Shown one piece after another: positions 30,113 to 41,838 of a DNA stretch of 64,000 nt (the stretch's first letter is position 1; each line of letters starts with the position of its first letter). This stretch comes from an uncultured Planctomycetota bacterium (GTDB lineage Bacteria; Planctomycetota; Planctomycetia; Gemmatales; Gemmataceae). The stretch is from the NCBI GenBank assembly GCA_963849325.1, contig CAWKHF010000002.1:544001-608000 (forward strand), written 5' to 3'. The position numbers and the translations under genes are program-made. The notes under the pieces are model-generated. The model made no database searches and had not been told where the DNA came from. It worked only from the letters and a program-made list of their open reading frames with translations.

Positions 30113-31397
30113 ATGGATCACTTTCACTACCGCAACCGCATACTTCACTGCGAAGACGTGCCCGTCCGCCAGCTGGCCGACCTCTACGGCACGCCGCTGT
30201 TCGTCTACAGCAAGGCGACGCTGTTGCACCATCTCCGCCAGTTGCAGAAAGCCTTCGCCGTGGTTGAGCCGCTGATCTGCTACAGCCTCAAGACCAACGG
30301 CAATCTGCACCTCTGCCGTACTCTGGCCGACTCCGGCGCCGGCTTCGACGTGACCAGCGGCGGCGAACTGTATCGGGCGCTCCACGCCGGCGGAGTCGGC
30401 GAGAAAATCGTCTTCGCCGGCGTCGGCAAGACCGACGCCGAGATTCGCTACGCCCTGGAAAACAACGTCTTTCTCTTCAACGTCGAGAGCGAGGAAGAAC
30501 TGCACAACCTCGCCGAGGTGGCCCGCGGCGTCGGCAAGACTGCCGGCGCCGCCCTGCGCGTCAATCCCGACCTGCCGCCCAAGACGCACGCCAAGACCGA
30601 CACCAGCGTCAAGGGCGTCAAGTTCGGACTCGACATCGACACCATCCTGGATGCGGCCCAGGGCGTCGTCGGCAACCCGCACGTCCGCGTCATCGGCCTG
30701 CACATGCACCTCGGCTCGCCCATCCTGAATACGAAGCCCTATCAGGAAGGCGTGACGAAGGGACTGAGCCTCATCGAACGCCTGCGCGAACAGGGACATC
30801 CGATCGAGCGTCTTGAACATGGGCGGCGGTTTCGGCATCCACTATCGCAAGCAGGAGGCGCAGCCGGCCCAGGCGTTCGCCGATGTCATCGTGCCGGCCG
30901 CACAGAAGGCGAAGTGCCGGCTGGTGCTCGAACCAGGCCGCTTCCTCGTCGGCAACGCCGGCGTCCTGGTCAGCCGCGTGCTCTTCACCAAGGAGTCGGG
31001 CGGCAAACATTTTCTCATCCAGGATGCCGCCATGAACGATCTGATTCGTCCGACATTGTACGATTCGTTCCACCGTATCTGGCCGGCCGAGCCGCCCGAG
31101 GGCGTGCCGGCCCCGCCGGACGATTACGAAGCCGACATTCCCAACACCCTCAAGCAGGACGTCGTCGGACCTGTGTGCGAGTCAGGCGACTTTTTGGCCA
31201 AGGAACGGCGTCTGCCCGGCCTGAAGCGCGGCGACGTGCTGGTCACGTTCAGCGCCGGCGCCTATGGCATGGCGATGAGTTCCAACTACAACAGTCGGCC
31301 GCGTGCGGCCGAGGTGCTGGTCGATGGTGGCCTGCATCGGCTGATCCGTCGCCGCGAGACTTACGAAGACCTGGTGCGACCTGAGATCGAGGTATGA
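30113..31397 (+). CDS. lysA: Diaminopimelate decarboxylase; frameshift near 30812
   Basis: Motifs YSLKTN, DVTSGGE, HMHLGS, GGGFG, EPGR, CESGD and SSNYN. Confidence 0.95.
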
Positions 31398-31398
31398 T

Positions 31399-31463
31399 GG
31401 CGAACGGCCGGCGTAAACCGGCTGGTCAGGCACCCACCAGCCGGCTTACGCCGGCCGTTCGCC
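31399..31463. repeat. REPIN-like palindrome (GAACGGCCGGCGTAA family)
   Basis: 28-bp arms with 1 mismatch. Confidence 0.8.
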
Positions 31464-31483
31464 GACGAAGAAGAGGCCCCATC

Positions 31484-33811
31484 ATGCGATCCTTTCTCCG
31501 GCCTATTGGCCTGGCGCTGTTCGTCGCGGTCGTGCTCCTCGCCCACGTTCCGGCGCAGGTGGACAAGGCGCAGCCGAAGCCTGTCGCCGCGCCCGCCGGC
31601 GGGGCCGGCCCGGACGAGGAGGATTACCGCCAGTTCTTCAAAAAACCGACCAACACGGCCGAATACTGGAACGCCATGCAGTTCGAGATCGACGTCGGCA
31701 AGTACGAATTGGCGGCCAACCATCTGCGCGGTCTGCTCAACTACAAACCGAGCGACGCCGACCTGGTGAAGCTGGCCGACGATTTTGGCGTCGCCGCCTT
31801 TTTGAAGCTGCGCAACATCCCACGCTGGTCCGACAATCCCAAGATCAACAAGGAAGCGACGGCCAACGTCGAGCAGCTCATCCAGCGTGTTACCGAGGCT
31901 GTCAAGAAGGTCCGCAGCGACCCCGTTCGCATCCAGAAGTACATCCAAAACCTGAGCGCCAGCCCCGAGGAGCACGACTACGCGCTGAAGGAACTGTACA
32001 AGTCGGGGGCCGCCGTCGTGCCCTACCTGATCGACGCCCTGCGCAAGGCCGAGCCGGACGAGCGTGTCCGGCTGCTGGGTGCGCTGCGACAGCTGGGACC
32101 GGACACGATTGATCCGCTGATCGCTGCCCTGGACAGCAACGATCCGCCCTTGCAGGTCGATCTGATCCGCCTTTTCATGCGGCGCAATGTACGTCAGGTA
32201 GTGCCGTACCTGTGGTTCCTGTCCGGTTCGCCATCGCAGCCCGACGAGGTGCGCCGGCAGGCCACCGCGGCGTTGGCCTATTTCCTGGAAACGCCCGCGA
32301 GCAAGCTACCGCCGGCCAAGGCCGAACTGACGCGCCAGGCCGAGCGCTACTATTTACACCAGGTCAAGTTCGCCAATCCGGCCGCGGTCACGGTCTGGCG
32401 CTGGGACGGCAATCGTGTCGTCGAGGGCTGGCCCGGTGCGGCGACCATCCCGGCCGACAAGGCTGAGGAATACTATGGCTTGCGCTTCACCGGCCAGGCG
32501 CTCTTGATCGATCCGTCGTATGGCCCGGCCCAGGTGGTGCTCCTGAGCGTGGTGCTCGACAAGACGCAGTCGAAGGCCGGCCTGGATCAGACGCTGGAGC
32601 GCGCGGCGCCGGCGGTGCATGGTTTGCTCGGCACCGTGCAGCCCGAACTGGTGTACGCGGTGCTGGATCGCGCCCTGCGGGAACAGCGCGTGTCAGTGAT
32701 CCTCGGAGCCGTCCGCGACCTGGGCGAGCGCGACGAGGTACGGGCATCGCAGCCGAGGGGCCGAGGCCAGCCGCCGCTGGTACGGGCGCTGTACTACCCC
32801 GACCGCCGCGTGCAGATGGCCGCGGCCGAGGCGCTGCTGCGCATCCCCGGCTCGGCCGCCAGTCAGGCGACGACGCGCGTCGTCGAGGTACTGCGCCGGG
32901 CCGTCGCCGCCGAGCCGGTCGTGCGCCAGCCGGCCAAGGTACTGATCGGCTACTTCAACGAGGACGTCCGTAACGCCGCCGCCGCGGCCGTCGCCGCCGC
33001 CGGTTATGAACCCATCAAGGTCGGCACCGGCCGCGAGCTGATGCAGCGTCTCGGCCAGGCGTCCGACGTGGCCTTGCTGCTCTTCGAGGAGACGCTACCT
33101 AATCCGGGCCTGGCGAACCTGCTGGGCCAACTCCGCGCTGACACCTATGCGAGCCAGCTGCCGGTCCTCCTGACCGCCGCTCCACGGCGCGAGGACGCCC
33201 TGCGGCGCTACACGCTGCGCTGGCCGAACATCACCGTCATCGCGGCCCCGTTCGCCATCGACGCCAACGCCCTGAAACCGCTCATCCAATCGCGCCTGGC
33301 CGACCCCGCCAGCCCTGCGCTGTCGGCGGCGGAGTTGAAGGCTTATGCCGAGCGTTCGATCAAGGGGTTGGCGCGTGTGGCTCGTGGGGAAGTGACCGGC
33401 TATGACGTGACACCGGCCGGGCCGACGGTCCTGGCGGCGCTGCGAGCGCCGAGCCGGCTGACGCCGGAGGGCCAGATCGCCGCGATGGACGTGGCCAGCC
33501 GGTTGAAGGGTGAGGAGGCGCAGACGGTGCTGGCCAACGTGGCGACCGACGGCAAGCGTCCGCTGGCCGTCCGCGTGGCGGCGGCCAACGCCCTGGTGCG
33601 GCACATCCAACAATTCAGCCCGCTGTTGACGCGCGATCAGGTCCGCGTCCTCGGCTCCCTGTATGCCCAGCCGAACCTCGATCTGCCGCTCAAGAACAGC
33701 CTGGCCCTGGTGATAGGGAGCTTGCAGCCGAATGCGCGGTTGACCGGCGAACGTCTGCTGCAATATCAGCCGCCGGTGCCGGGAGCACCGGCGCCCAGGG
33801 AAGAGAAATAA
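31484..33811 (+). CDS. Secreted HEAT-repeat protein with a receiver-like insert
   Basis: Signal peptide; HEAT-like repeats (PLVRAL...VQMAAAEAL); a CheY-like beta/alpha segment from KVLIG to PVLLTA. Confidence 0.7.
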   Translation: MRSFLRPIGLALFVAVVLLAHVPAQVDKAQPKPVAAPAGGAGPDEEDYRQFFKKPTNTAEYWNAMQFEIDVGKYELAANHLRGLLNYKPSDADLVKLADDFGVAAFLKLRNIPRWSDNPKINKEATANVEQLIQRVTEAVKKVRSDPVRIQKYIQNLSASPEEHDYALKELYKSGAAVVPYLIDALRKAEPDERVRLLGALRQLGPDTIDPLIAALDSNDPPLQVDLIRLFMRRNVRQVVPYLWFLSGSPSQPDEVRRQATAALAYFLETPASKLPPAKAELTRQAERYYLHQVKFANPAAVTVWRWDGNRVVEGWPGAATIPADKAEEYYGLRFTGQALLIDPSYGPAQVVLLSVVLDKTQSKAGLDQTLERAAPAVHGLLGTVQPELVYAVLDRALREQRVSVILGAVRDLGERDEVRASQPRGRGQPPLVRALYYPDRRVQMAAAEALLRIPGSAASQATTRVVEVLRRAVAAEPVVRQPAKVLIGYFNEDVRNAAAAAVAAAGYEPIKVGTGRELMQRLGQASDVALLLFEETLPNPGLANLLGQLRADTYASQLPVLLTAAPRREDALRRYTLRWPNITVIAAPFAIDANALKPLIQSRLADPASPALSAAELKAYAERSIKGLARVARGEVTGYDVTPAGPTVLAALRAPSRLTPEGQIAAMDVASRLKGEEAQTVLANVATDGKRPLAVRVAAANALVRHIQQFSPLLTRDQVRVLGSLYAQPNLDLPLKNSLALVIGSLQPNARLTGERLLQYQPPVPGAPAPREEK

Positions 33812-33989
33812 CCCGCTCTCTTTAAAGAGGTAAAGAAGACACAATTAATCTTCTAACCTCCGTCTCGCCTTCGTCGCTCGGCATGACGACGAGAGGCAAA
33901 GCTGTGGCGCGGCTTCTCAAGGCGAAACGAGGATGTTCGACACTTCTACACTTCTCATGAAATCATGAAAGCATCAGTTCCGATTTCAT

Positions 33990-34018
33990 TTGACAGTGCA
34001 GGATCGCAGGGTTGAAAT
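33990..34018 (+). promoter_or_regulatory. Putative sigma70 promoter (Pc-like) TTGACA-N17-TGAAAT
   Basis: Perfect -35, 17-nt spacer and 4/6 -10, upstream of the attI-like site. Confidence 0.4.
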
Positions 34019-34065
34019 ATCTGAATTAGATGGCGCGACCTAAACACCTCTTTCGAGTGTGTGCA

Positions 34066-34084
34066 CCCTAATCAGCAGTTCGGA
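34066..34084 (+). other. attI-like / cassette left junction CCCTAA-N6-G^TTCGGA
   Basis: Same CCCTAA-N6-GTT spacing as class 1 attI1. TTCGGA matches 5/6 of the complement of the downstream attC R'' box. Confidence 0.5.
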
Positions 34085-34111
34085 AAAGAAGGTCTTTACT
34101 GGAGGAGCGGC

Positions 34112-35053
34112 GTGCTAATATTGGGCGACCGGAAGTTTATCGAGGCCGCCTTCGAGTCCGAGGAGGAACTCGAACAGGTTGTCATCGCTAATTCCGAGTA
34201 CCTCTTCGGTCCGGCTTCCCTTTACTTTCCGAAAGCCCTTATCCGCACCAAGGATGGATTTGGGACAATCCCCGATGGGTTCGTGATCGATCTGACGGCG
34301 AGGCGTTGGTATATAGTCGAGGCCGAACTGGGCAAGCACAGCGTCTGGAGCCATATCGCCCCCCAAGTGGCCAAACAACTCATCGCCGCGATGAACCCTG
34401 CGTCCCGACAGCTTCTGATCGATTTAATCGTCGAAAAGGTCCGGGAAGACGAAGCCTCGATGGATAAATTCAGAGACGAAGGGATCGAGGTCATCGACAT
34501 CCGGCGCTTCCTTGGAGAGATTTTGGAGGGCAATCCAACCGTCGGTATGCCGATTAACGTCATCTCCAGCGACCTGCGGGAATGGGCGTCTACGCTCAAG
34601 GTCAGCGTCAAACTGTGGATTGTTCGCAAGCATGTCGAGTTCGGCCATCCGGAGCGAGTTCTGTTCGAGATCCCGGAAGAGTTTCGGCCAGCGTTGGATA
34701 CCGGAGTGGAGATGTCAGATACTTCGCGGCAGGCCCGGTACGATGTCAGCTTGTCTGACCTAATCCTGAGCGGGCTGCTGCGGAATGGCCAAAAACTGCA
34801 GTTGAACTGGAAACCACGCAATGGCGATAAGCGGGTTTTTGAGGGGCTAGTCAGGGATAGCGGGGAGATTGAGGTGCTAGGGAAGTCCTTTACCAGTCCC
34901 AGCTACGCGGCCGTGTACGCTCTTCAATCGACTGGCAGCAGTCGCACTACCGAGAACGGATGGGTCAAGTGGAAGACCGAAAGCGGAGTGTTACTTTCGA
35001 CACTCCGCGATCAGTATCTTCAATCAGTCGACGGGCGAGCAGACGGCGCCTGA
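34112..35053 (+). CDS. PD-(D/E)XK endonuclease-like N-terminus + RAMA domain protein (candidate modification-dependent nuclease)
   Basis: N-terminal E.ELE...IPDG...IVEAEL...H...Q. C-terminal SLSDLILSGLL..G...G....G.I...G..F.SPS.AA...NGW..W matches RAMA. GGAGG RBS before the GTG; more AT-rich than the flanks. Confidence 0.75.
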   Translation: MLILGDRKFIEAAFESEEELEQVVIANSEYLFGPASLYFPKALIRTKDGFGTIPDGFVIDLTARRWYIVEAELGKHSVWSHIAPQVAKQLIAAMNPASRQLLIDLIVEKVREDEASMDKFRDEGIEVIDIRRFLGEILEGNPTVGMPINVISSDLREWASTLKVSVKLWIVRKHVEFGHPERVLFEIPEEFRPALDTGVEMSDTSRQARYDVSLSDLILSGLLRNGQKLQLNWKPRNGDKRVFEGLVRDSGEIEVLGKSFTSPSYAAVYALQSTGSSRTTENGWVKWKTESGVLLSTLRDQYLQSVDGRADGA

Positions 35054-35105
35054 AATACGTTAGATGACGGCATTTCGGCGGAGCATTTTCTGTTTAGGGC
35101 GCCAG

Positions 35106-35202
35106 GCCGAATCATTCGATGCAACAGACAGGGCCGGCATTTTGGCTTTCCATGCTATATCACCCATCCCGCCGGCCTTGCTGCTGAGCTTGTTTGTTCC
35201 TG
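35106..35202 (+). mobile_element. Integron attC site (97 bp)
   Basis: R'' GCCGAAT, 5 nt, L'' GATGCAAC, inner stem AG(A)CAGGGCCGGC/GCCGGCCTTGCT, L' GCTGAGC, 6 nt, R' GTTCCTG. Confidence 0.75.
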
Positions 35203-36473
35203 TCACTTCCGTTCGATCTCCCGCAACGCCTCGGCGGCCCGCCGCCGCACCTCGGGATGCGCGGCCTTCTCCGCCGCGCGCAACGCCGGGACGGCACCTT
35301 TTGCCGCTTGCCCCATCTCGCCCAGGATGCGGACGACTTCGAGGCGGAGTAGCTTGTCCTTGTTCCGGAGAGCCGCCGTCAGCACGGGCAGGACGCTTTT
35401 GGCCTCGTGTTCGATCTGCCACAAACTCTGGGCGGCCTGGACGCGGACGCCCTCGTTCCGATCCGCCAGCAGCGGCGTCAGCTTGGACACCGCTGCGCGG
35501 GCCTCGGGTCCGATCAGCCCCAGCACGTGCGCCGCGTCGCCGCGCACGAACTTGTCCTCGTTCTTCAGCGCCGCGATGAGTACCGGCAAGACGGTGCGGG
35601 CCTGGTGGTCGATGCGCCACAGAGCCTCCGCCGCCTGCACGCGCACGCCTTCGTCGGCATCTTTCAGCGACTCGCGCAGCGCCGGGGCCGCCGCTCGCGC
35701 TTTGGCGCCGAAAGCTCCGAGGGCGCGAGCGGCGTCGGCGCGGACGCCCTCATGCACATCCTTCAAACAGGCACGCAGCGCCGGCACCGCCATTTCCGCC
35801 CCGGCGGCGACCTCACCCAGCGCCGCGGCGGCCTGGCCGCGCACGCCCTCGTCCTCGTCCTTCAGCAGCTGCACGAGCGCTCCCACGGCACCTTTCGCCT
35901 CGGTGCCCCTCTCGCCCAGGCCGGCCGCCGCGTTCAGGCGCACTCCAGCGTCTGCGTCCTGCGAGCGCCTCGATGAGGAGAGGGACCACCGCTCGGCCGC
36001 CGATTTCGCTCAGCGCCGCCGCCGCGTTCAGCCGGACGGTATGATCGCCGTCCTTGAGGAGTCGGCCCAGGGCCGGCACCGCTTTCTGGGCGGCGTCGCC
36101 CAGACCGCCCAGGGCGAAGGCGGCATGAGCGCGGCAGTCCGTGTTCGCGTCCTGCAGCGCCGCCAGCAGCGCCGGCAGCGCGGCGCGCTTCCGGGCCGAT
36201 CTCGCCCAGCGCATCCGCACACAGGCTGCGCACTGCCGCGTCCTTGTCGCGCAGCGCCGCGGTCAGCGCCGGCACGGCCGGCGCCGCGTCGCCATTGAGG
36301 TCGGCGCACCAACGCAGTAACGCCTGCGCCGCGCGAAGCCGCGTTTGATCGTCGCCGTGCCGCAGCGCCTCGACCCATTCCGGCAGCGACTTGTCGTCGG
36401 CGCCGACTTCACCGGCACGACCGACGCCCGACAGACCCAGGCTGATGAACGCGACAATGAGGACCGTTCTCAT
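35203..36473 (-). CDS. Secreted HEAT/PBS-lyase repeat protein; frameshifts near 36183 and 35960
   Basis: Signal peptide, then many AVPAL...LKD.D..VR..AA.ALG repeats. Confidence 0.85.
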
Positions 36474-36516
36474 GCGTGACTCTCCGTGAGTTGTCTCCGG
36501 GTGGTTCTCCGCGTCA

Positions 36517-40818: not shown

Positions 40819-41520
40819 ATGCCCCTCACCGTTGCATGGCACGACATCGCCTTGCGGCTGGCGCTAACCGTCCTGGCAGGCGTTGTCATCGGACTCAACC
40901 GCAGCGAGCGCGGTCGGCCGGCCGGGCTGCGCACGACCTTGCTGGTGTGCCTGGCCGCCTCCGTCTCCATGATCCAGACAAACCTGCTCCTGACGACCAC
41001 GGGGAAAACTCCCGAATCGTTCGCCGTGATGGACATGATGCGCCTGCCGCTGGGCATCTTGACCGGCATGGGCTTTATCGGAGCTGGGGCGATTCTCCGC
41101 CGAGGAGATCGGGTGCAGGGGGTGACGACTGCCGCTACCATGTGGTTCGTCACGGTCATCGGCCTGTGCTTCGGCGGCGGACAACACGGGCTGGGCCTGG
41201 CGGCGCTGGCGCTGGCCGTCATGGTGCTGTGGTTTCTCAAAAGGGTGGAGTTGACCATGCGGCGCGACTGCCATGCGATGCTGATCCTGCACATCGCAGC
41301 GGACGGCCCAACGGAAGCGGAGGTGCGCTCCACGGTGCGGACAGCGGGATATGAGACGGCCGACTGGAACATCGTCCTCCGAGGCCGAGGAGAGACACGA
41401 CGACTCGCGTTGCGCTGCGAGGTGCGCTGGCGCGACCGGGAAACGGAGGTACAGCCGCCCGCCTTCCTCCATGAACTCGCCCAGCGGCCGGGTGTGGTGA
41501 AGCTCCAATGGCAGATCTAA
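40819..41520 (+). CDS. MgtC/SapB family protein
   Basis: Motifs AGLRT, GMGFIGAG and GVTTAA. Confidence 0.9.
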   Translation: MPLTVAWHDIALRLALTVLAGVVIGLNRSERGRPAGLRTTLLVCLAASVSMIQTNLLLTTTGKTPESFAVMDMMRLPLGILTGMGFIGAGAILRRGDRVQGVTTAATMWFVTVIGLCFGGGQHGLGLAALALAVMVLWFLKRVELTMRRDCHAMLILHIAADGPTEAEVRSTVRTAGYETADWNIVLRGRGETRRLALRCEVRWRDRETEVQPPAFLHELAQRPGVVKLQWQI

Positions 41521-41545
41521 GCGGGAGGAACTGAGGTGTCGCGCA

Positions 41546-41838
41546 CTACCTTCCATCGCGTGGCCTGTCTGCGGCAGCGGATTGTTCCCCGTTGACGTCC
41601 GTGACCGGAAGCAAAGCGTGAAGTGCCTCGGGGGCGAAGTCGGCCCCATTCGGCCAGACGACTGTCCCACAGACCGGATCGAGCACGACCCGAGCGAAGA
41701 AATTTGGGTCGCGGAGGGGCTCGAACACCAAACCGCTCAAGAGCGGCTCGACATCCACGACAGCCCCGCGCCGTCGCTGAAGGACAATTCGAGGTGGTGA
41801 GGGCCACGAACCTCCGCCTCCAGGATTCGCAAAATCAT
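41546..41838 (-). CDS. DUF2442 family protein (antitoxin-like); frameshift near 41767
   Basis: MILRILEAEV..HHLELSFSDG...GLVFEPLRDP.FF...GTVVWPNGADFAPEAL. Confidence 0.75.

Follow-up and report, generated by a model that had tools for sequence, protein, structure and literature searches.

A lone integron-type gene cassette behind a repeated attI-like leader in an uncultured member of the Gemmataceae

We analysed a 64,000-nucleotide (nt) stretch of DNA from an uncultured Planctomycetota bacterium of the family Gemmataceae (assembly GCA_963849325.1, contig CAWKHF010000002.1, positions 544,001 to 608,000 of the forward strand), which is called the window throughout. In it, one gene followed by a 97-nt element with the layout of an integron attC site lies in a lower-GC stretch of 1.39 kb between two native, GC-rich HEAT-repeat genes. 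The locus as a whole is probably a one-cassette integron module without an integrase, which stands on a satellite platform that was filled in trans. We regard it as very likely that the element is a genuine attC site and the gene its cassette. The repeated leader in front of the gene is, with some reserve, best read as a working attI-like platform, and this genome would contain about two dozen satellites of this kind, the window module among them.

An attC family and its integrases

The element comprises the following features.

35106-35202, plus strand: attC site, 97 nt, found with the covariance model R1 and a leave-one-out hidden Markov model (HMM)
35106-35112, plus strand: R'' box GCCGAAT, followed by the 5-nt spacer CATTC
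35121 and 35128: bulged bases G35121 and A35128 in the L''/stem arm on the R''-L'' side (alignment columns 19 and 26)
35133-35138 paired with 35171-35176, plus strand: GC stem of the family structure
35190-35195, plus strand: 6-nt spacer TTGTTT between L' and R'
35196-35202, plus strand: R' box GTTCCTG, with TCA directly after it

When the window's own genome was searched with BLAST and then with iterated nhmmer, 43 places resembling the element were found at E≤0.01. The copies occur singly or as pairs and triples 640-850 nt apart, with open reading frames (ORFs) upstream on the same strand. Canonical attC sites carry an RYYYAAC-like R'' box at the 5' end and a GTTRRRY-like R' box at the 3' end. 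The family ends in R'' GCCGAAC and R' GTTCGGC, which are exact inverses of each other, and R' is often followed by GAAGGAGG and a start codon. We aligned 21 copies with intact ends, omitting five of the 26 candidates because their ends were degenerate, as well as copies interrupted by insertion sequences (IS); in these 21, which were chosen for intact ends, the GTT was invariant.

Because RNAalifold recovered only 7 pairs on the MAFFT alignment, an attC-type fold was drawn over the alignment by hand (R box, spacers of 5 and 6 nt, L box, one long stem and two bulges on the 5' arm). Across the 21 copies, 81.7% of the cells were paired in this fold, compared to 23-47% when the partner columns were slid. 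The covariation score was 0.26 versus 0.04-0.11 in the slid controls, and none of 500 shuffles reached the observed score. Both sides of the stem had changed in a compensatory manner in 12 of the 19 stem pairs. In the family alignment the window copy has the unequal spacers (5 and 6 nt) and the two unpaired bases on the 5' arm that characterise an attC site.

The covariance model R1 was built from the 21-copy alignment and gave 38 matches in the genome, which are 37 sites and one reverse-strand echo. The window copy scored 76 bits (E 2.8e-20, rank 12). As this copy was among the training copies of R1, an HMM was made from the other 20, which matched the window at 35106-35199 with an E value of 2.1e-15. 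The family is strongly strand-specific under R1, for example 105.5 versus 34 bits. The window element is beyond chance at the level of the family and unconvincing taken alone. An Rfam scan of 33000-36500 at E≤10 gave five chance-level matches and no integron-related family, and nothing terminator-like was found in a terminator scan. An attC model specific to Planctomycetes has already been published (PMC8352920).

Genome-wide, the attC sites form 26 loci, namely 17 singletons and nine clusters of two or three. In the window, one attC with its adjacent gene stands without an integrase, and a second complete attC is absent within 4 kb, which is the arrangement of a SALIN (a single attC site lacking an integrase). 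The next attC signal, a truncated remnant, lies 6.3 kb away (41520-41587, minus strand; leave-one-out HMM E 1.4e-06). This remnant consists of the 5' half only and is intergenic, following an MgtC-family gene; R1 gave 18.7 bits at 41470-41590, and there is no leader nearby.

In relatives, arrays of R1 matches adjoin integron-integrase genes (intI) and diverge from them, as seen in genomes G006, G016 and G021.

G006, contig C380: five R1 matches beside intI
G006, contig C235: one R1 match beside intI
G016, contig C83: five R1 matches beside intI
G016, contig C132: two R1 matches beside intI
G021, contig C100: eight or more R1 matches beside intI

The integron-integrase model TIGR02249 scored above its cut-off in 16 of 61 genomes, including two of the ten other genomes of the same genus, and some relatives have 2-4 intI genes each. 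R1 matches were found in all ten of these same-genus genomes, though intI occurs in only two, and they are spread over megabases where contigs are few. In the window's own genome TIGR02249 gave 15 weak matches, none above the 265-bit cut-off and none on the window contig (C2), the best candidate being XerD. No intact intI was found in the assembly, which is 84.7% complete, and tblastn with IntI of the same genus gave no match on the window contig. An intI within a few kb of the attC, as in a complete integron, was thus not found at the window.

Elsewhere in the genome, the region C5:62000-72000 (L069) holds a truncated intI remnant, a 196-aa ORF with only two N-terminal integrase SAM-like domains, whose only NCBIfam matches are integron-integrase models. 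Three insertion sequences, two of the IS110 family and one IS4-like, share this region with three attC sites, which lie on the divergent strand, and one of the cassettes there encodes a DUF2262 protein. A leader of the kind found in the window (C5:70982-71087, minus strand) lies ~110 nt from the remnant and is divergent from it, with a disrupted core. L069 is a decayed integron with a leader in attI position.

A sequence-only reading of the window had described a 97-bp element with attC architecture, and the element indeed belongs to an attC family of this lineage that adjoins intI in relatives. The related attC sites that it had proposed to look for are present among the 37 R1 sites, with intI surviving only as the truncated remnant on C5. 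Its statement that no intI lies in the window was borne out and holds for the whole contig.

Some attC copies in this genome are interrupted by two IS110-family elements (Pfam DEDD_Tnp_IS110 and Transposase_20), which sit at fixed points within the attC. Element one (~1.85 kb) is inserted just past the AAC of R''. Element two (~1.5 kb) has split the 3' arm between GCTGCT and GAGCT, and the rest of the attC is found beyond it. IS110-family insertions in attC were seen at these places.

C7:538900-542360: IS110-family insertion in attC
C12:879951-881804: copy
C5:65699-67233: copy
C5:713192-714733: copy
C12:958674-960167: copy

A repeated leader in front of the cassettes

Upstream of the cassette lies a second repeat, the leader, with the following features.

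33971-34084, plus strand: type-1 leader and putative attI-like platform, 114 nt, a member of a repeat family, recovered by a leave-one-out HMM
33990-33995, plus strand: TTGACA box, followed after a 17-nt spacer by TGAAAT at 34013-34018
34037-34045, plus strand: GACCTAAAC, within the leader
34066-34071 and 34078-34084, plus strand: attI-like core, simple-site-like, of CCCTAA, the 6-nt spacer TCAGCA and GTTCGGA

The crossover would lie between G34078 and T34079. When we searched the genome with window positions 33971-34087, about 20 other places matched. A leader HMM from which the window copy had been excluded matched 33977-34083 with an E value of 4.5e-15. In total the genome contains 28 leaders, 20 of type 1 and eight of type 2. 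The type-1 consensus consists of TTGACA, a TTGA-ATA box 17-18 nt further on, the palindromes TTAGGGCGC/GCGCCCTAA and the end CTCGAA-GAACAA-G/TTCGGC, in which the slash marks the crossover. Type-2 leaders have a TTGAC box, GATAGATA, three to five direct repeats of 21 nt and the end GACCTAA-ACAGAT-G/TTCGGC. Both types therefore end in an L-spacer-R layout at G/TTCGGC, which is the same core as that of the attC R' box. Upstream, the leaders cease to resemble one another ~25 nt before the TTGACA box, and their flanks are unrelated. With these boxes, the leader is a putative promoter.

The leaders are associated with attC sites in a directional manner. An attC follows within 4 kb downstream on the same strand in 15 of 28 cases (9/20 for type 1 and 6/8 for type 2), and 5' attC fragments lie downstream of four of the remaining 13. 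In the controls, for type 1 and type 2, respectively, an attC was found upstream on the same strand in 0 and 1 cases and on the opposite strand in 0 and 0. Seen from the attC side, a leader is present at 15 of the 26 loci, or 16 when one weak match is counted. The leader heads the arrays, and none was seen between the attC sites of a cluster. At C4:228716-229673 (minus strand) a single cassette is located inside a type-1 leader, such that the first 80 model positions precede it and the leader 3' core follows its attC. Judged from its position, this insertion suggests a possible second crossover point at the internal TTAGGG box.

In relatives of the same genus with an intact intI, the region shares the layout of the leaders, in the order intI, ~400 nt, a TTGAC box 60-70 nt before the G/TTCGGC core, and the first cassette. 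In the window's genome, one of the 20 type-1 leaders, the copy with the disrupted core beside the intI remnant, occupies this attI position between intI and the first cassette. In G006, three further places repeat the attI segment of this genome, and the segment also matches ten places on eight contigs of G008, none of which is C88, the contig with an intact IntI, and several of these are followed by R1 matches. This recurrence in G006 and G008 indicates that dispersed leaders are not confined to genomes without an integrase.

Two further ideas on the leader were rejected. Homology of the type-2 leader promoter to the cassette promoter (Pc) region of G006 was dropped, as by eye only the TTGAC and GATAGATA boxes are shared and their spacing differs. 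That leader, cassette and attC together form one composite cassette starting from the GTT at 33977 was dropped as well, as leader similarity extends upstream of that GTT. Separately, one type-2 leader (C6:45806-45941) is broken by a short insert without an ORF and with long terminal inverted repeats, which looks like a miniature transposable element, to judge from these repeats.

The cassette gene and its locus

The remaining features of the locus are given below.

31394-33811, plus strand: upstream native HEAT/Arm-repeat gene, 805 aa, GC 0.677, used as the anchor of the locus across species
33812-33970: spacer of 159 nt between the upstream gene and the leader
34079-35196, plus strand: gene cassette, 1118 nt, with TTCGGA as its first bases and the G of R' as its last base
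34101-34107, plus strand: ribosome-binding site GGAGGAG, preceding the GTG start at 34112
34112-35053, plus strand: cassette gene, 313 aa, GTG start, stop codon at 35051-35053
35203-35943, minus strand: downstream native convergent HEAT-repeat gene, Pfam HEAT_2 4.6e-43, GC 0.719

The ends of the cassette were set by the rule of the family, in which attC copies end in G/TTCGGC and the next cassette begins with TTCGGCGAAGGAGG. At the right-hand junction with the host, TCA at 35203-35205 of the plus strand, which is the stop codon of the convergent HEAT gene, abuts R'. The cassette has a GC content of 0.553 and the leader one of 0.472, compared to 0.677 and 0.719 for the flanking genes and 0.656 for the whole window. 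The AT-rich island of the sequence-only reading is thus real, and every motif it listed (TTGACA, CCCTAA-N6-GTT, GTTCGGA, R'' and R') lies at its place. Both junctions it proposed also agree with our results: on the left, TTCGGA fits the usual cassette start TTCGGC, and on the right, R' GTTCCTG runs into the stop codon of the HEAT gene. The attI-like CCCTAA-N6-GTT context with its TTGACA box, to which it had drawn attention, proved to be itself a conserved repeat that heads cassette arrays.

The 313-aa cassette protein has a C-terminal RAMA domain (Pfam PF18755, 58.3 bits versus a cut-off of 35.2). Its AlphaFold model has a predicted local distance difference test score (pLDDT) of 87.3. By fold comparison, residues 209-306 resemble MPND (Z 13.2, root-mean-square deviation (rmsd) 1.5 over 87 residues) and the C-terminal domain of CcrM (Z 12.0). 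Residues 8-200 resemble NucS (Z 10.1, rmsd 2.4 over 107 residues), followed by AF1548 (8.9), FokI (8.4) and many restriction and defence nucleases at Z 6-9. Pfam gave no match on residues 1-218, and phmmer gave none against the PDB sequences at E≤1. D55, E70 and E72 are invariant in 30 homologues, and the lysine is only the majority residue. On the model, the protein is predicted to join a PD-(D/E)xK nuclease fold, in the N-terminal ~200 residues, to a DNA-reader domain of the RAMA type. A match to the PADLOC candidate PDC-S14 (1.1e-14) covers the C-terminal part only, and there is no partner methylase or other system gene inside the cassette. The predicted product is most likely a stand-alone restriction-like or anti-phage nuclease. 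In preprints, integron cassettes have reportedly been proposed to encode phage defence.

The cassette gene was not found in the 40 relatives. In a large protein collection, 965 homologues of ~310 aa were present, many of them from Planctomycetes. Genome loci were inspected for 14 homologues, and at four of these (L073, L074, L075 and L085) the homologue is flanked directly by R1 matches on both sides, inside arrays.

The upstream HEAT gene has relatives in 39 of 40 other genomes, with the best amino acid identity (78%) in G009. In this closest relative, 319 nt beyond the HEAT orthologue, a leader core is followed by a different gene of 247 aa and an attC (R1 29.9 bits, nhmmer E 2e-05). The G009 leader core fits a 19-nt pattern whose chance expectation in a genome of such size is 0.0005. 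In the window's genome this pattern occurs four times, three times in type-1 leaders and once as the 3' core of the C4 leader. TIGR02249 found no intI in G009, which is 97% complete. A different cassette at the same position, one of two outcomes foreseen in the sequence-only reading, was therefore seen in G009, and the other, an empty site, was not found. Gene order is not conserved past this point in the relatives, so that no empty site could be lined up: in six loci with a HEAT orthologue the genes downstream are different each time, a search of the genus at E≤1e-10 did not return the EF-hand neighbour, and the GTPase neighbour of G007 is ~58 kb away from the HEAT orthologue.

Two observations concern the HEAT genes themselves. 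The downstream HEAT region (35203-36473, minus strand) contains two ORFs, 35203-35943 and 35934-36473, which overlap by 10 nt and are either one frameshifted gene or two neighbours. At the N-terminus of the 805-aa HEAT protein (31394-31490), the initial 25-50 residues recur with 55-88% identity in dozens of short stretches of its own and of same-genus genomes, which points to a possible leader or signal motif common to many proteins.

Competing explanations and known systems

We propose the following course of events for the window. A leader of ~115 nt would provide an outward-facing TTGACA promoter-like box and the attI-like core CCCTAA-N6-G/TTCGGA. The bottom strand of the attC of a circular cassette would fold into an R/L-box hairpin with the two bulged bases that integrases use, and an integron integrase supplied in trans would join it to the leader core at G34078/T34079. 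The gene would then be read from the leader promoter by way of its own GGAGGAG site. The integrase that served the locus would since have been lost from this genome or have decayed. As only a truncated intI remnant exists elsewhere in the genome, the cassette has probably become fixed, short of an integrase arriving from outside. More tentatively, with a chance that we put a little short of even, this planctomycete lineage has a distributed integron: dozens of scattered leaders of two types, each a promoter plus attI-like site, would capture and express one to three cassettes by means of an integrase in trans, the cassettes would turn over, and the satellites would outlast the integrase. Turnover at satellites is proposed because a different cassette occupies the same site in the sister species.

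Several observations weigh against this explanation, and the first group concerns the attC. Folding of the window element alone was ordinary (z -1.46 on the plus and -1.40 on the minus strand, from the single sequence), and its minimum-energy folds leave R'' and R' unpaired. Folding of the element with a larger 3' region (z -0.4 to -1.5, single sequence) was uninformative. The window R''/R' pair is degraded, with three Watson-Crick pairs and one wobble out of seven; R'' reads AAT rather than AAC, as it does in 3 of the 21 aligned copies, a change that in the sequence-only reading may have immobilised the cassette, and two positions of the L box and stem are mismatched. The canonical extrahelical bases of attC sites are G and T; the bulged bases on the bottom strand of the window element would be C and T. 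No attC was detected by R1 at the two closest homologues of the cassette gene (L076 and L078). At G019:C43:542-2225 (L039) the R1 match and intI share a strand, with the match behind the 3' end of the gene rather than divergent from its start, which may reflect an inverted integrase or a contig-edge effect.

The second group concerns the leader and the integrase. Nine of the 28 leaders have neither an attC nor an attC fragment downstream, and 11 of the 26 attC loci lack a leader at the thresholds used. The explanation offers no route by which ~28 leader copies would have spread through the genome. A promoter consensus scan did not list the TTGACA/TGAAAT pair and returned one unrelated weak site only. 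Among sequencing runs, one DNA run contained 0.06 of the sampled words, and no RNA run was listed. The leader HMMs found nothing at 13 loci around the intI genes of relatives, and the attI segment of G006 had no BLAST match in the window's genome; because of this lack of a match to the attI sites of relatives, the attI identity of the leader depends on the one copy beside the remnant, on position and on layout. The leader HMMs likewise found nothing at the 14 loci with a homologue of the cassette gene. Finally, as the assembly contains no intact intI, integrase activity in trans cannot be current in this genome.

The sequence-only reading had offered two origins, an integrase-less one-cassette integron and a cassette captured at a chromosomal GTT site. 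The former fits better, and the latter loses ground since the DNA upstream is a dedicated, repeated leader. If the cassette had been captured at an ordinary secondary (attG-type) GTT site, the upstream similarity would have to be, for example, a shared promoter or operator. Integrase-driven insertion at genomic attG sites, with expression from nearby resident promoters, is described in passages of 10.1101/2022.09.11.507474. The sequence of R' past the crossover (TTCCTG), which is host-like and differs from the family consensus, and the nine leaders without a detectable attC downstream would agree with such a capture. However, the upstream repeat stops exactly at G/TT, with a GTTCGGC core of attC type, and the leader heads arrays and is not seen between the attC sites of a cluster. 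One leader is moreover in attI position beside an intI remnant, and the C4 cassette is inserted inside a leader. We therefore regard capture at an attG site as improbable.

A second possibility, equally unlikely in our view, is that a once complete integron left this stump by deletion of its intI, and that every other leader locus lost its intI likewise. Integrase loss is a proposed origin of integrase-less attC clusters in passages of PMC4889954, this genome does contain one decayed, IS-ridden intI beside a leader, and some relatives possess two to four intI genes. But some 28 independent clean losses would be required, and leader similarity ends ~25 nt upstream of TTGACA in unrelated flanks. 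Only 159 nt separate the upstream gene from the leader in the window, the tblastn search with same-genus IntI was blank on the contig, and G009 has the same arrangement, likewise without an intI.

It is very unlikely that the 97-nt element is a generic palindrome of the repetitive extragenic palindromic (REP) or miniature inverted-repeat transposable element type, or a terminator, unrelated to integrons: it is a dispersed, hairpin-forming intergenic repeat, and IS110/IS1111-family elements, which are inserted in attC copies here, also target REP sequences (PMC11187229, in part), but its arrays lie directly beside and divergent from integron-integrase genes in relatives, it is strand-specific and follows same-strand ORFs at a cassette-like spacing of 640-850 nt, it has inverse RYYYAAC-like and GTT cores, and the scan showed nothing terminator-like.

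Lone cassettes and small integrase-less attC clusters are common in surveys, and their origin is debated between integrase loss, rearrangement and secondary-site insertion. The window locus and its approximately two dozen siblings suggest a fourth route, in which dedicated, repeated attI-like leaders, each with a promoter of its own, would serve as satellite docking sites. If this is true, many SALIN elements and attC clusters without an integrase (CALIN) would be purpose-built satellite platforms and not debris or accidental insertions. The expression of promoterless cassettes away from the main integron would be explained, and more of the chromosome would be open to integrase-driven gene exchange. 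A leader together with an attC would then be an annotation signature that separates real lone cassettes from false attC matches. The predicted nuclease-RAMA fusion joins the candidate defence genes that travel as integron cassettes.

Among known systems, the classical integron (intI, Pc, attI and array) is similar in having a promoter-like box upstream of a simple-site core with a G/TT crossover, and in that a ribosome-binding site and an attC belong to the window cassette itself, with everything on one strand. It differs in that there is no intI at the locus and that the platform occurs in ~28 copies of two types rather than once per integrase. With secondary or attG insertion the locus shares a right junction in which host sequence directly follows G/TT, and the position of the cassette between two core genes; on the left, the window cassette borders a member of the leader family and not arbitrary host DNA. 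Our two IS110-family elements, which are located outside the window locus, resemble the IS1111-attC group in their fixed positions within attC; insertion within attC is described for ISKpn4 and ISPst6 of that group in passages of PMC11187229. Like RAMA restriction-associated proteins (PF18755; PDC-S14), the predicted product joins a C-terminal RAMA domain to a restriction-endonuclease-like domain, whereas the cassette lacks a partner methylase and the PDC-S14 match covers the C-terminal domain only.

The closest comparison is with the IntegronFinder classes SALIN (single attC) and CALIN (attC cluster), both without an integrase (PMC4889954), whose definitions and proposed origins are treated in passages of PMC4889954 and 10.1101/2022.09.11.507474. 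In these passages, SALINs have no other att site nearby and are explained by integrase loss, rearrangement or attG insertion. The present loci resemble both classes in that a gene and one attC occur without intI, small clusters are scattered through the genome, and IS are found near some loci. In contrast to a SALIN, a conserved attI-like leader that is repeated in the genome and has a promoter-like box precedes the window cassette; no report of such leaders heading these elements was found in the literature searched, which comprised listings and a few passages. The window locus is a SALIN-type cassette, and its new feature is the repeated attI-like leader.

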